Sequence record: PX880103.1
Reading direction: 5' to 3' (one strand)
Length of the DNA stretch: 64,000 nt
Origin: a phage
Part shown: positions 56,891 to 61,913 of the stretch, one piece after another
Numbering within the stretch: position 1 is the first letter of the stretch
Layout: every line of letters begins with the position of its first letter
The notes under the pieces: generated by a model
The model's input: the letters and a program-made list of their open reading frames with translations, nothing else
Databases searched by the model: none
What the model was told of the DNA's origin: nothing
Translations under genes and position numbers: made by a program

Positions 56891-57541
56891 TTATTTTTCC
56901 TTTCTTATGAAGTTTTCTATCATATGTCTATAGCAGATATTAGGATAACCTGCCTTGACAGCTATTTTATTAAATTTTGTGCGCTTAGGTCTATTATTAT
57001 AAACCCATAATTCATAAAGCGCATCATAACTATTCCATATTTCTCCTCGCCTAGGATTTGGTAAACCATATCGAGGTGAATTTTTACCGCTAAATCTTCC
57101 TTTTCGGGCTTTACTCATATTAGCCTTGGCTTCATCGGATATAATTTTACCTTTATGAGCTAGACGCATTTTGGCTTTAGTTTCTTCTGGGGTCTTTTTG
57201 CCTTTAATCCATGACGGCTTGCCATATCTAGGATTATTTTCACCCGAGAAAAGAACAGAGTTTTGGATTTTAAGGGTTTCTATTAATCTACTTGTTAATT
57301 TAACACCTTTATTATATCGCATTAAATTTACAGCATAATGCAATCCTCTCACATCTGGATATATTTTAGTTAATAATCTATGAGCTATAAAATGCTCACG
57401 CGCAGTTAACTCAACAAGATTGTTTTTGTCATCTGCTCCTCCTATACATCTAGGAATTATATGATGGCGTTCTTTATATCCGCCAAGATGCCGGCATTTA
57501 GCTTTTGTAATTAAAGCCGAGTAAATTTTTTGGTAATTCAC
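56891..57541 (-). CDS. HNH homing endonuclease with NUMOD3-like DNA-binding repeats
   Basis: 216 aa; HNH core ERHHIIPRCIGGADDKNNLVELTAREHFIAH; repeats TPEETKAKMRLAHKGK and SDEAKANMSKARKGR; starts with GTG. Confidence 0.75.
   Translation of the reverse strand: MNYQKIYSALITKAKCRHLGGYKERHHIIPRCIGGADDKNNLVELTAREHFIAHRLLTKIYPDVRGLHYAVNLMRYNKGVKLTSRLIETLKIQNSVLFSGENNPRYGKPSWIKGKKTPEETKAKMRLAHKGKIISDEAKANMSKARKGRFSGKNSPRYGLPNPRRGEIWNSYDALYELWVYNNRPKRTKFNKIAVKAGYPNICYRHMIENFIRKEK
56891..57541 (-). mobile_element. freestanding homing-endonuclease gene inserted between genes 56 and 61
   Basis: HNH/NUMOD3 architecture typical of T-even mob/seg elements; intergenic position between conserved core genes. 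Confidence 0.5.
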
Positions 57542-57611: not shown

Positions 57612-57812
57612 ATGGTACAAAAATTAATGGCACTTGTTAATGCCATCAAAGGTAATAAGAAACGTATAGCTTTTACTATTTCTGCTATGGTAGGAATTTT
57701 ACTCTGGAATTTTGTTTTATCGCCAATTGCTATTGCTCATGGCGTTAATATTCCAGTAATTACTCTTGATACATTCGTAGATTTAGCATTTGCTTTAGTT
57801 GGGTTAATTTAA
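57612..57812 (+). CDS. small membrane protein, opposite strand to all neighbours
   Basis: 66 aa with two hydrophobic segments; strong AAGGAGG RBS 4 nt before the ATG; 3' end overlaps the gene 61 stop. Confidence 0.5.
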   Translation: MVQKLMALVNAIKGNKKRIAFTISAMVGILLWNFVLSPIAIAHGVNIPVITLDTFVDLAFALVGLI

Positions 57813-58837
57813 ATCTTAGCATATTTAGATAGCCGCATTTTAGCCATCAACCCTTGAGCAATATTATTTTTCATATATTCCATAATTTGTTCAGGGGTTG
57901 CACCTTCCTTTCTAATCATATCATTAACATCTTTTGATTTCCAGGGAGATTTGTCCCAAAACATAACCCTTTCTCCTGCATCAACTAATTTAGTCATTCG
58001 TTTAATAGTGTCAGGGTGACGAGGTTCATTATCTAAAACCCATACACGTCTATCTTTAAATGGAACAATTTCTAGGTCTAATTGACCACCCGTAATAGCT
58101 ATACCATTTTCAATAAAAAGTGAATCTATAGGTCCTTCTAGAACATATACATCACCATCTTTAACTCGTTCGACTCCATATATTTTTGTTGCCTCAGGAT
58201 AAGCTTTAATGGTGATATATTTTTGGGGAGCATCTTTCTTTAATGCACGTCCTTGAAAAGACTCAGCTTTTCCATTAGCATTATAAATTGGAATAACAAG
58301 ACGAGGCTCAGAAATTTCCTTTTTATATGTTCCCGGTGCTATGCTATTAACCAATTTAGGCCATTCGGTTGTAAACCAAAGATATTTCCATTTATCCTTT
58401 GGAATACAACGAGCTTTTACATATTTTATAATTGGATGGTCTTCCGTCAGTTTATCTAATCTAACACATGACGGAAGAGATTTAATTATTTTCTTCTCAG
58501 GTTGTTTAGGAAGTTCTTTAGGTTTTTCTACTGGACGACTTTTACCTTTTTCTTTTCTTATTTCAAAGATATACTCACGATATAAATCAGGTTCAAACTC
58601 CTTTAAATATATTCCGATTGGTGCATGATAGTTGCAGTTATAACAATGAATATTTCCTTCATTATTATCACCATAATACCATCCACGAGCTTTATTCTGG
58701 TCGGTTTTTGAATCTCCACAAACAGGGCATCTAAACCGTAATTTAAAAGTTGAACTATTATTTACTTGTGTGAATTTAGGTAAATGAGCTAATGCACGAT
58801 ACGCAAACTCATTATCAATCCAAGGTATTGATGACAT
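57809..58837 (-). CDS. 61: gp61 DNA primase
   Basis: 342 aa = T4 gp61 length; zinc ribbon CPVCGD...CYNC and TOPRIM domain. Confidence 0.93.
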   Translation of the reverse strand: MSSIPWIDNEFAYRALAHLPKFTQVNNSSTFKLRFRCPVCGDSKTDQNKARGWYYGDNNEGNIHCYNCNYHAPIGIYLKEFEPDLYREYIFEIRKEKGKSRPVEKPKELPKQPEKKIIKSLPSCVRLDKLTEDHPIIKYVKARCIPKDKWKYLWFTTEWPKLVNSIAPGTYKKEISEPRLVIPIYNANGKAESFQGRALKKDAPQKYITIKAYPEATKIYGVERVKDGDVYVLEGPIDSLFIENGIAITGGQLDLEIVPFKDRRVWVLDNEPRHPDTIKRMTKLVDAGERVMFWDKSPWKSKDVNDMIRKEGATPEQIMEYMKNNIAQGLMAKMRLSKYAKI

Positions 58838-58839
58838 TT

Positions 58840-59004
58840 TTACTCTTCTTTTTCTTTAGATTCCTCTTTTTTCTTTTTAGGAATCTGTTCAGGACCTTTA
58901 TTTACTACAGCGCCTGATGTTGTTCCAGTAGAGATATTTTCAGGATTACCACCTGAATCTCCAGCGACCATATCTTCTTTGATAAATTCTTTATATGTTT
59001 TCAT
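58840..59004 (-). CDS. small lysine-rich ORF (61.1 position)
   Basis: Hand-translated 54 aa MKTYKEFIKEDMVAGDSGG...; below track cut-off. Confidence 0.35.
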   Translation of the reverse strand: MKTYKEFIKEDMVAGDSGGNPENISTGTTSGAVVNKGPEQIPKKKKEESKEKEE

Positions 59005-59005
59005 A

Positions 59006-59632
59006 TTAACCTCTATTCATAAAAGCATTAAAAATTTGGTCATCAATAGAAACATTTACTTTAGACTGTTTTTCTGATGGTAATTCATATCCACATATTA
59101 CAATTTTGTGATCAATATCAAAATACACAGAAGCAATATGATTAATGATGTTTTCAGTAAAGTCTAAATCAACATCAATATCTTTTTGACCACAGCCCAA
59201 AGGATAAATAATGCGAGTAATTCGATTATCTTTAACAAAGATTCCACCGACATACTCTGTGCTGCGTTTAAAGTCTACACGCCGACGAAATGAAAAATAT
59301 TCAGGCTCTTTATGAGCTCGGCTCATAGGGCACAACGAATAACTAGAATAAGAGATGTCAAATCCTACGCCTTCAATATGAACTAAATTGTCATGATTAA
59401 ACCAATTATAATCATATGCCAAGTCCATTAGATTGTCATATGTGAAAGGCACCGGATTAACATCATTGGTCACAAGCATATAATTAGCAACTGCTATAAT
59501 TTCATTATTTTTAACGAATACAAACCGTGATTGATGCGAATGACCTGGACCTGCGTTTTCACGATTAATGATATAACACTGGGCACCTTTATATTTGTAC
59601 GTGTCTTTACACTTGTGCATTTGATAAAGCAT
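59006..59632 (-). CDS. 61.2-position protein, possible AdfA (anti-DarT factor) homolog
   Basis: 208-aa ORF between 61.1 and sp; T4 gene 61.2 at this position is, as I recall, the locus where DarTG escape (adfA) maps. Confidence 0.5.
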   Translation of the reverse strand: MLYQMHKCKDTYKYKGAQCYIINRENAGPGHSHQSRFVFVKNNEIIAVANYMLVTNDVNPVPFTYDNLMDLAYDYNWFNHDNLVHIEGVGFDISYSSYSLCPMSRAHKEPEYFSFRRRVDFKRSTEYVGGIFVKDNRITRIIYPLGCGQKDIDVDLDFTENIINHIASVYFDIDHKIVICGYELPSEKQSKVNVSIDDQIFNAFMNRG

Positions 59633-59925
59633 TATTCACCTACCACTTCAGCGATGATATTTTTATTATTAAAGTTTTTATCGCAATACAGAACATAATT
59701 ATACTGCATTACACCACCAGACTTAAGCTGTTTTTGCACTTCAGCTTTCATTTCAGGACGATCGCGCTCAACGATATTCATAATATCTGCTTCAATTTGG
59801 GTTTCAACTTCAATCTGATCTGCAGACATAGACCATTCACACAAATCTTTATCATAACCTGCCATAGCAGGCTGAGCAGCACAAGAAGCTAAAGCAAAAA
59901 TTGTAGCAAAGATAAATTTTTTCAT
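59632..59925 (-). CDS. sp: Spackle (periplasmic inhibitor of gp5 lysozyme; superinfection exclusion)
   Basis: 97 aa with cleavable signal peptide MKKFIFATIFALASCAAQPAMA; T4 61.3 position and length. Confidence 0.6.
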   Translation of the reverse strand: MKKFIFATIFALASCAAQPAMAGYDKDLCEWSMSADQIEVETQIEADIMNIVERDRPEMKAEVQKQLKSGGVMQYNYVLYCDKNFNNKNIIAEVVGE

Positions 59926-59944
59926 GATAATCTCCTCAGTAGTT

Positions 59945-59985
59945 TATGTTTATATAGTATCTCAATTTCCAACAAAAGTAAACAG
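59945..59985 (-). promoter_or_regulatory. sigma70-type early promoter upstream of sp
   Basis: Minus-strand GTTTAC (plus: caaaagtaaacag) and TATAtAaaC-like -10. Confidence 0.4.
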
Positions 59986-60243
59986 TTATTTTAAAACTTC
60001 TGCGTAATCACATGTTACAAACTGTTTCTCTAGCTTGACGATTTTACGAAAGTATCTTTTGCATTGACGAATCTGTCGCTTCGTAGGGCGAACAGCAAAC
60101 TTAATAAATTCCACTCGACCAAATGGAGGACTTTCTTCTGCTGGAATATCTAGCACCAATTCCCACGTATCTGCAATAAGTGCTTTGAATTGCGTATTTT
60201 TCCTGACGTTATACGGAGTAGGTTTAAATAAAACAATATGCAT
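59986..60243 (-). CDS. basic protein at 61.4 position (possible ToxN-inhibitor TifA equivalent)
   Basis: 86 aa from internal ATG MHIVLFKPTPYNVRK; Lys/Arg-rich; adjacent to dmd. Confidence 0.45.
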   Translation of the reverse strand: MHIVLFKPTPYNVRKNTQFKALIADTWELVLDIPAEESPPFGRVEFIKFAVRPTKRQIRQCKRYFRKIVKLEKQFVTCDYAEVLK

Positions 60244-60244
60244 A

Positions 60245-60427
60245 TTATCCTCGGCAATCCACTTCACACACTTTCTTGTCATCAATGAAAGCTTTAACTA
60301 ATGCTTTATTAACTTCAGCATATTGAGTAGTAGCCCATTGAACGTCATCTTTCATCATTGTGGTTTCTTTAGTAAACATACTTTCATTCTTAAACCACCC
60401 CATAAAAACTACCTTTACCAATTCCAT
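60245..60427 (-). CDS. dmd: Dmd (antitoxin against host RnlA/LsoA)
   Basis: 60 aa MELVKVVFMGWFKNESMFTKETTMMKDDVQWATTQYAEVNKALVKAFIDDKKVCEVDCRG, matching T4 Dmd (61.5) as recalled. Confidence 0.88.
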   Translation of the reverse strand: MELVKVVFMGWFKNESMFTKETTMMKDDVQWATTQYAEVNKALVKAFIDDKKVCEVDCRG

Positions 60428-60485
60428 AACAATCTCCTCATTTAACCAACAAGACTACTATACCATAGTCTTGTCAGCTTGTAAA

Positions 60486-61913
60486 CTAAAATTTTAATTC
60501 ATTTGCCAAAGCATCTAACTGAGCTCGAGCTGATTCGTTTCTTTGATAGCGATTCTGCTCAGCCTGAATCTGCTGTGAACCTGCTACCTCACTCACTTCA
60601 GTTGGAGTAGAATCTTGTTCAATTTCTACCCATTTCTGATTTCCTTTTTGAACACCCATCAAAAACTTATTCCATTTGTTCTTATCGCCATATCGTGATT
60701 TGATTTGCTTAATGAGTTGTTGCTCAGCAGCTGCCAACTCCTCGGTTTCAATGACCGCAAGCATAAAATCGGCTGTTGCTGGAAGACCGGCAGATTCTGC
60801 AATATCGCTCATGTTAACATCAGAAGAGTCCCAAGCTTGCTTACCAACCTGTGCTGCAGTCCAAAGAACAGTTTCGGTTTCAACAGCAAGAGCACGCAAT
60901 TCCTCTGCAATAGCTTTAACAGTTGTGTAACTATTTTCTGAATAAACTCTGATGCGGCAAGATTTACAAATACCTAGATAGTCGACAATAATGATTGTTG
61001 GAACAAAATTCTTTTTGAGCTTCAATTCGTTTAAAAGTGATCGAAATGTATTAGCATCTGCTCCGCCAGTAGGATACTGTTTAACGATTAAACGACCGAG
61101 AGTAGATTTCTCACGCCATTTTTCCATTTTTCCTTTATACTCAGCGTAAGAAATATGCCCATCATCAATGTCATCAAGAGAAACATCAAGCATATTAGCA
61201 TCAATACGTTTAGCACAGACTTCTTCTGCCATTTCCATGGAAATGTAAAGAACATTATGTCCGAGCTGCAAATAATCTGCTGCCAATGAACACAGACCTA
61301 ATGACTTACCAACGTTAACGCCAGCCATTAAAACGTTCAGTGTTCCAGTCTCAGCTCCGCCTTTAGTAATTTTGTTTAGAATTCTGAGTTTAAATGGAAC
61401 CTTACGAGCTTTATTCATATAAGATAGCCAACGTGCTTCGTAGTCATCCATCCAATCATGACCAACGTAGCTATCAAATGAAATAGATAATGCTTGGCGC
61501 ATGATGTCAGGAATAGCACCAACGTCCGGCATTTTCTTATTTCGTTTTTCCGGAGGAAGCTCAGCATTAGTTTGAATTTCGATTATTTTAGACGTAGCAT
61601 TAAACATCGCCCTTTGCTGAACATATTTTTCTGTTTCTTTTATTAACCAGCTGTGGTCTTCCGGAGAATCAGCTAGTTTTGAAATAAGTGTTTTTACACC
61701 AGAATATTCTGTTTCAGTAAATGAACTATTTTCTAATGCAACATTTAACGCATTAATAGATGGAACGCTATGATACTCATTGACATGAGATTTAATTAAT
61801 TTGAATGTATTTTTAGCTGGACCACTTTCAAAATATTCTGAATCCATATATGGCCAAACTTTTGAAAAATAAGCTTGATCAAATATGAGATGAGAAAGAA
61901 TAATTTCTACCAC
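60486..61913 (-). CDS. 41: gp41 replicative DNA helicase (DnaB-like)
   Basis: 475 aa = T4 gp41 length; Walker A GVNVGKS, helicase motifs. Confidence 0.95.
   Translation of the reverse strand: MVEIILSHLIFDQAYFSKVWPYMDSEYFESGPAKNTFKLIKSHVNEYHSVPSINALNVALENSSFTETEYSGVKTLISKLADSPEDHSWLIKETEKYVQQRAMFNATSKIIEIQTNAELPPEKRNKKMPDVGAIPDIMRQALSISFDSYVGHDWMDDYEARWLSYMNKARKVPFKLRILNKITKGGAETGTLNVLMAGVNVGKSLGLCSLAADYLQLGHNVLYISMEMAEEVCAKRIDANMLDVSLDDIDDGHISYAEYKGKMEKWREKSTLGRLIVKQYPTGGADANTFRSLLNELKLKKNFVPTIIIVDYLGICKSCRIRVYSENSYTTVKAIAEELRALAVETETVLWTAAQVGKQAWDSSDVNMSDIAESAGLPATADFMLAVIETEELAAAEQQLIKQIKSRYGDKNKWNKFLMGVQKGNQKWVEIEQDSTPTEVSEVAGSQQIQAEQNRYQRNESARAQLDALANELKF

Follow-up and report, generated by a model that had tools for sequence, protein, structure and literature searches.

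The interval between the primase gene (gene 61) and the replicative helicase gene (gene 41) was analysed in phage sequence record PX880103.1; the window, meaning the whole stretch of DNA that was analysed, is 64,000 nucleotides (nt) long, and all positions refer to it. Four intact genes, adfA, sp, tifA and dmd, lie on the minus strand at 59006-60427 in the same order as in phage T4, and this islet almost certainly corresponds, as its orthologue in a Tequatrovirus (T4-like) phage, to the accessory block between primase and helicase of T4, and it would be made as two early units of single-target inhibitors. Against the direction of numbering, dmd (61.5; 60245-60427, 60 amino acids, aa) is followed by tifA (61.4; 59986-60243, 85 aa counted from ATG), sp (61.3, encoding Spackle; 59632-59925, 97 aa) and adfA (61.2; 59006-59632, 208 aa). 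The limits used in a preliminary description of this DNA coincided with the end of adfA and the start of dmd and omitted the fifth small gene of the primase-helicase interval, gene 61.1 (58840-59004, minus strand, 54 aa). The placement given there was right: upstream lies gene 41 (60486-61913, minus strand), identified from the T4 annotation as a 475-aa open reading frame (ORF) with 3 aa differences from T4 gp41, and downstream lies gene 61 (57809-58837, minus strand), a 342-aa ORF with 4 aa differences from T4 gp61. Every long ORF of the ORF list between 57.8 and 61.9 kb is on the minus strand. All four gene identifications were upheld by pairwise comparison with the T4 proteins and by family models, and a compact block of functions directed against toxin-antitoxin (TA) systems and superinfection, as proposed, is what the T4 orthologues make up, an island idea already in print (Srikant et al. 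2022).

The 1646-bp interval 58840-60485 was compared by megablast with 50,697 phage records. It matched 631 records; in 332 of them query coverage was at least 80%, and with these the interval aligned end to end as a single piece with no insertions or deletions. A chance pattern can be discounted, as each protein also scored well over the threshold of its curated family. Closest at the DNA level were the Tequatrovirus phages G50, VEc74 and PST (98.5-98.7%), and T4 (AF158101.6 18966-20611) aligned as a single ungapped piece with 98.1-98.2% identity. Over the aligned stretch the T4 reference annotation gives 61.1, 61.2, sp, 61.4 and dmd, with identical order, lengths, overlaps and closely matching spacers, and each protein differs by 1-3 residues; the surrounding genome, unlike the islet, is mosaic relative to T4. 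The codon differences from T4 in the four genes comprised 20 synonymous and 8 non-synonymous changes, and this excess of synonymous changes fits purifying selection. Assignments from PHROGs agreed with Pfam for the islet proteins, whereas PADLOC and NCBIfam scans of the five proteins returned no matches, phage counter-defence proteins being outside the coverage of these libraries. Activities are assigned to the four proteins here because they are 97-99% identical to T4 proteins used in experiments.

The product of dmd differed from T4 Dmd by a single substitution, I22T (59/60 residues identical, 98.4%), matched Pfam PF17587 over residues 1-60 of 60 (1.8e-45, 153.5 bits; cut-off 27) and matched PDB entry 5hy3_B, 'Antitoxin Dmd', at 9.6e-37; T4 protein, family model and crystal structure thus agree on the 60-aa ORF being Dmd, as had been stated with confidence. 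This exact sequence is public on 290 contigs, and its UniRef entry carries the suffix _BPT2, for phage T2. Dmd inhibits the HEPN RNase toxins RnlA and LsoA directly, in the groove between the N-repeated and HEPN domains (PMC8266594), and dmd is strictly required on rnlAB+ cells, in which dmd mutants fail through degradation of late mRNA (PMC9391042, PMC8266594). As an antitoxin-like inhibitor of RnlA/LsoA, Dmd would stand in for the labile host antitoxin, so that late phage mRNAs would survive; growth of this phage on rnlAB or lsoAB hosts is predicted to depend on dmd.

The basic ORF adjoining dmd, which had been assigned by position to the ToxN inhibitor, is tifA: its product is 98.8% identical to T4 gp61.4, with I83V as the only difference, and matched Pfam DUF7279 (PF23945; 2.3e-20, 72.7 bits, cut-off 24.5) and phrog_2375 (2.4e-38). 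It is basic (isoelectric point 9.8, 17 Lys plus Arg), and its exact sequence is public on 207 contigs; a PDB sequence search found no relative. The ORF had been described as 86 aa long, a figure that counts the stop codon after 85 residues. The mechanical ORF list gives a longer form still, a 99-aa protein starting at an upstream TTG (59986-60285) and overlapping the end of dmd, and this is very improbable as the tifA product: the ATG at 60243 lies 1 nt past the dmd stop and is preceded by a GAGGA Shine-Dalgarno sequence, the T4 annotation and all experiments use the 85-aa protein, 85 aa is the commonest length among the listed members of the TifA protein cluster, and the alignment with RB69 TifA begins at the same Met. 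The TTG-initiated form was rejected on ORF context and Shine-Dalgarno sequence.

TifA binds RNA and the endoribonuclease ToxN, a type III toxin, which becomes trapped in a large ribonucleoprotein complex, for the most part on 16S rRNA; the K55A R56A R59A mutant served as the RNA-binding-defective control, and F41S or F41H markedly strengthens inhibition of ToxN, His41 being the residue of RB69 (PMC10853763). In the window K55, R56 and R59 are all kept, in a block that is invariant with RB69, and TifA would bind RNA and ToxN in the same way, trapping the toxin in a ribonucleoprotein complex formed largely on 16S rRNA. Residue 41 is Phe as in T4, not the Ser or His of the strong inhibitor, a difference that concerns the strength of the allele and not membership of the family. 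As TifA carries F41, the weak T4 allele, the phage is predicted to stay sensitive to toxIN at plasmid level while resisting it at chromosomal level.

The 208-aa ORF at the position of T4 61.2, between sp and 61.1, is AdfA, as had been proposed. It matched the Pfam model PF23813, 'Anti-DarT factor A', over residues 1-208 (model positions 1-211) at 1.5e-136 and 452.9 bits (cut-off 27), and it is 98.6% identical to T4 gp61.2, from which it differs by L62P, F147C and P190S; a lack of similarity of this ORF and its smaller neighbour to AdfA and TifA, which had been named as grounds for abandoning the assignment, was therefore not observed. The adfA start codon overlaps the sp stop (ATAATG). AdfA is identical to the protein of phages VEc74 and FL23, and no relative was found in a PDB sequence search. 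In published work a bacterial two-hybrid assay showed AdfA to associate with DarT1, which it blocks, and the single change R164H turns RB69 AdfA from a non-binder into a protein that binds and neutralizes DarT1 (PMC11257639); His165 of the window protein aligns with RB69 Arg164 and is the residue of the binding allele. AdfA would thus bind the DNA ADP-ribosyltransferase DarT1 and prevent modification of phage DNA. The activity of T4 AdfA has been seen only in trans, where it rescues RB69 on DarTG1 (PMC11257639).

The principal anti-DarTG1 factor of T-even phages is another protein, the ADP-ribosylglycohydrolase AdfN, gp30.3 (PMC11257639). Its gene, adfN (30.3, for a NADAR-type DNA ADP-ribosylglycohydrolase), was located by tblastn with T4 gp30.3 and by Pfam at 1765-2223 on the minus strand, far from the islet. 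AdfN is intact there (97.4% identity over all 152 aa; Pfam Phage_30_3, 3e-69), with catalytic E36 and K43 kept, and DarTG1 resistance of this phage is predicted to be due mainly to AdfN and not to AdfA.

The signal-peptide protein of the islet had been matched to Spackle, which the T4 protein and crystal structures support: it is 96.9% identical to T4 Spackle (T34S, T38I, K53E) and matched Pfam PF25676, T4_Spackle (1.1e-43, 148.2 bits; cut-off 27), and the PDB entries 6x6o (2.3e-60) and 7cn6 (3.9e-45). T4 Spackle has a 22-residue secretion signal, a mature protein of 75 residues and a Cys29-Cys81 disulfide (PMC7650644, PMC7677548). The window protein has a signal peptide of 22 residues, MKKFIFATIFALASCAAQPAMA|GYD..., ending AMA|G, which leaves 75 mature residues, and both Cys29 and Cys81 are present. 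Spackle is exported and forms a 1:1 complex with gp5's lysozyme domain, inhibiting the lysozyme so that superinfecting T-even phages are excluded; the contacts are made by Gln37, Asn76 and the main chain of residues 32-35 (PMC7677548, PMC7650644). Gln37 and Asn76 are kept here, and residue 34 is Ser in place of Thr, a change that should be tolerated because this residue meets gp5 through its main chain. Exported by its signal peptide, Spackle would clamp the gp5 lysozyme domain of incoming T-even tails in the periplasm and so block superinfection; it is a superinfection-exclusion factor and not a counter-defence protein, a distinction that the preliminary description acknowledged. Whereas the exact sequences of AdfA, TifA, Dmd and gp61.1 are already public, that of Spackle, alone among the five islet proteins, was absent from a collection of 15 billion proteins (best phage match 97.9%); T34S/T38I/K53E is, by sequence, a trivial new combination of alleles. 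K53E puts an extra negative charge on Spackle, which binds a basic patch of gp5; the gene for the cognate gp5 is expected to lie outside the window.

Transcription of the islet would be early, on the minus strand and probably in two units: a promoter directly after gene 41 would serve dmd-tifA, and another, between tifA and sp, would serve sp-adfA-61.1(-61). In T4, dmd and 61.4 are driven by an early promoter upstream of dmd, and a promoter downstream of tifA is mentioned (Srikant et al. 2022, PMC9391042). A putative early-type sigma-70 promoter of dmd-tifA was found right after the gene 41 stop (60457-60485, minus strand; TTTACA-17-TATAGT with extended TG), with 10/12 matches to the consensus, in a 58-nt gene 41-dmd spacer that differs from T4 by one base. 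A second, promoter-like site, TTTACT-17-TACTAT, which we infer to be the start of the other unit, lies in the tifA-sp spacer (59954-59982, minus strand) and has 8/12 matches, under the threshold of the scanner; this 60-nt spacer is 100% identical to T4 and holds a Shine-Dalgarno sequence, GAGGAG, at 59932-59937 after the promoter-like site. Within 58700-60600 there was no intrinsic terminator-like site. The T4 late-promoter box TATAAATA was absent from the islet, and its 7 matches across the window are no more than expected by chance. An 8-bp inverted repeat (CAAGACTA...TAGTCTTG; 60440-60470, minus strand), which is kept in T4, flanks the -10 element of the dmd promoter.

Some points weigh against the islet being a working equivalent of the T4 block. 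Both promoters are consensus matches only, and we infer their function; the proteins carry a few substitutions that might alter activity (L62P/F147C/P190S in AdfA, I22T in Dmd, T34S/T38I/K53E in Spackle); residue 34 of Spackle lies within the gp5 contact, though this is a main-chain contact; and T4 AdfA itself has no detectable role against the DarTG1 that was tested (PMC11257639).

The last point bears on host range as well. It had been proposed that the exact repertoire of the islet predicts host range, but the published genetics of adfA with DarTG1 and of tifA with toxIN do not support this. An explanation that takes the genes as T4 orthologues all the same holds that the set does not determine host range on the canonical systems, where phenotypes would be set elsewhere, by AdfN for DarTG1 and by copy number for ToxIN, and that the AdfA and TifA alleles are tuned to other toxin homologues or need another dosage; it is rated slightly below an even chance. 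T4 lacking adfA still resists DarTG1, an effect of AdfA was not seen even in a background lacking adfN, and among 17 Tevenvirinae neither presence nor allele of adfA correlated with DarTG1 sensitivity (PMC11257639); AdfN is intact in the window. Wild-type T2, T4 and T6, with one tifA copy each, are still strongly restricted by plasmid-borne toxIN (PMC9391042), and escape from it needs amplification of dmd-tifA or F41S (PMC9391042, PMC10853763), F41H being the other strengthening allele where the window has F41. On the other side, native tifA suffices against chromosomal toxIN, although only there, and tifA mutants lose plating efficiency on such hosts (PMC9391042); dmd is indispensable on rnlAB hosts (PMC9391042, PMC8266594); and T4 AdfA supplied in trans does rescue RB69 on DarTG1 (PMC11257639). 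Because dmd, tifA and adfA are thus functional inhibitors, the argument from host range qualifies the orthology of the islet with an inhibitor block of T4 and does not replace it. Allele-level predictions are made possible by AdfA His165, TifA Phe41 and the intact AdfN. Whether a phage plates on hosts with DarTG or ToxIN should not be predicted from gene presence alone; what decides is the allele, its dosage and redundant factors encoded elsewhere in the genome.

The islet was compared with its counterparts in related phages. The G50, VEc74 and PST records label the islet genes mostly 'hypothetical protein' and assign no function to their adfA and tifA homologues; VEc74 AdfA is 100% identical to that of the window, and G50, like the window, has a homing endonuclease between genes 56 and 61. 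In most related records the 'hypothetical protein' labels can be replaced by AdfA, TifA, Spackle and Dmd. RB69 (Mosigvirus), in which AdfA was first found (PMC11257639, PMC9391042), has the same core order 61.1, adfA, sp, tifA, dmd between genes 61 and 41. Its AdfA, 69% identical, has Arg164 where the window has His, and this Arg marks the allele without neutralizing action on DarT1; its TifA, 57% identical, is missing the last 15 residues at the C-terminus and shows at position 41 the His of the strong allele, against Phe41 in the window. It differs further by insertions in the interval, namely imm and imm.1 (superinfection immunity) and six extra ORFs annotated without function. T2 is colinear for dmd, 61.4, sp and 61.1, the window Dmd being the allele with the UniRef suffix _BPT2, but its 61.2 slot (MH751506.1 18028-18384; L005:2807-3163) holds a different gene, for a 118-aa protein, instead of full AdfA; T2 has been described in the literature as having no adfA homologue. 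The homology of this T2 'gp61.2' is confined to AdfA's C-terminal half (35% identity, E = 4e-9; Pfam AdfA 32.5 bits, cut-off 27), and its end, SIDDQIFNAFMNRG, is identical to that of AdfA.

The filled T2 slot and the insertions in RB69 favour a different account of the clustering, in which the grouping is incidental and the primase-helicase gap simply tolerates small, non-essential early genes whose functions are mixed. The target of Spackle, which is other phages and no host defence, points the same way, as does the gp61.1 family, which is kept beside the primase in distant T4-like phages and resembles a segment of a capsid protein. Three of the five islet genes (dmd, tifA and adfA), however, inhibit toxins of three different TA types, and dmd and tifA share an operon and are direct neighbours in T2, T4, T6 and RB69, so that incidental clustering is rather unlikely. 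The region has been said in print to be one that 'may be an anti-TA island' (Srikant et al. 2022, eLife 11:e79549, PMC9391042). As an orthologue of that T4 block the islet was correctly identified in the preliminary description, but it is already known and shows only point differences from T4; T4 papers of 2012 to 2025 had already described the genes, their mechanisms and the idea of an island, so that nothing in it is biologically new.

The gene left out of that description encodes a protein that differs from T4 gp61.1 by F4Y and I26T (96.4% identical) and matched phrog_1823 (7e-34), while Pfam gave nothing for gp61.1 even at E<=10. Its N-terminus, MKTYKEFIKE, agrees at 8/10 positions with the capsid targeting sequence MKTYQEFIAE of the internal proteins IPII and IPIII. 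The T4 capsid targeting sequence comprises 10 residues, of which positions 4 and 7 act in targeting and 8 and 10 in processing by gp21 (PMC9026906); Y4, F7, I8 and E10 are all kept in gp61.1, the only ORF of the 64-kb window with the motif. Residues 2-38 further align with residues 57-93 of the major capsid protein gp23, across both the maturation site cleaved by gp21, L-T-E65|A66, and the N-arm of gp23*. Pairwise BLASTP gave E = 1e-8, the Smith-Waterman score of 80 was reached in 0/2000 shuffles (29 ± 4.5, maximum 53), and hhalign of the gp61.1 family profile against gp23 gave 93% probability and E = 2.6e-7; gp61.1 of RB69 (92 aa) aligns to gp23 residues 36-93. The N-terminal region of gp23 faces the scaffold in the prohead and becomes an external N-arm and N-fist after expansion. 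The similarity to gp61.1 stops just before the region that we take to be the Gol segment, the activator of the Lit protease.

Family relationships were followed with profiles. T-even phages have short forms of gp61.1, and 609 phage records, mostly of T4-like phages of enterobacteria, Acinetobacter, Vibrio and Aeromonas, contain forms of 130-165 aa (phrog_2086), which bear the label 'gp61.1' in Aeromonas phage Aeh1; judged by sequence, gp61.1 is a truncated T-even form of this 130-165-aa family. A hydrophobic-x-Glu motif before a conserved M-V-A-G-D core was found in 31/44 representatives and, shifted by one residue, in 7 more. A hidden Markov model (HMM) built from 13 short homologues and run against 1.84 billion representatives yielded, at E<=1e-3, 50 small proteins of 50-251 aa; a full-length capsid protein was not among them, and for this reason the link to gp23 comes from the pairwise BLASTP, the shuffle test and the profile-versus-sequence comparison only. 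Some NCBI and UniRef records nevertheless name gp61.1 homologues 'major capsid domain-containing protein'. Genes 61.1 and 23 showed no similarity at the DNA level, for which reason an origin of 61.1 by recent partial duplication of gene 23 was rejected. The literature yielded no paper on a capsid-targeting-like N-terminus of gp61.1 or on its similarity to gp23.

A tentative and somewhat unlikely reading of gp61.1 is a peptide that is directed to the capsid or mimics it. In this case residues 1-10 would be the capsid targeting sequence, the prohead protease gp21 would cleave behind Glu10, and a 44-residue copy of the gp23* N-arm that ends in a Lys/Glu-rich tail would remain. Two fates are conceivable for this peptide: packaging followed by injection along with the DNA, or, given its early synthesis, a decoy role towards a host sensor or partner of the gp23 N-terminus. 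If this is true, gp61.1, as a protease-processed mimic of the capsid N-arm, would add a small phage effector of a new kind to a locus that has been studied heavily.

Outside the interval, the place of T4 dam, between the dCTPase gene 56 and gene 61, is taken by an HNH/NUMOD3 homing-endonuclease-like ORF of 216 aa (56891-57541, minus strand). This flank is mosaic with respect to T4, as DNA identity in gene 56 is only about 76%. Searches of the entire window with T4 Dam, T4 SegF and RB69 Imm as queries gave no match, nor did a partial T4 SegA query. A hydrophobic ORF of 66 aa on the plus strand (57612-57812) overlaps, with its end, the 3' end of the oppositely oriented primase gene by 4 nt; it is 52% identical to RB69ORF029w and is also present, unannotated, in T4 AF158101.6.

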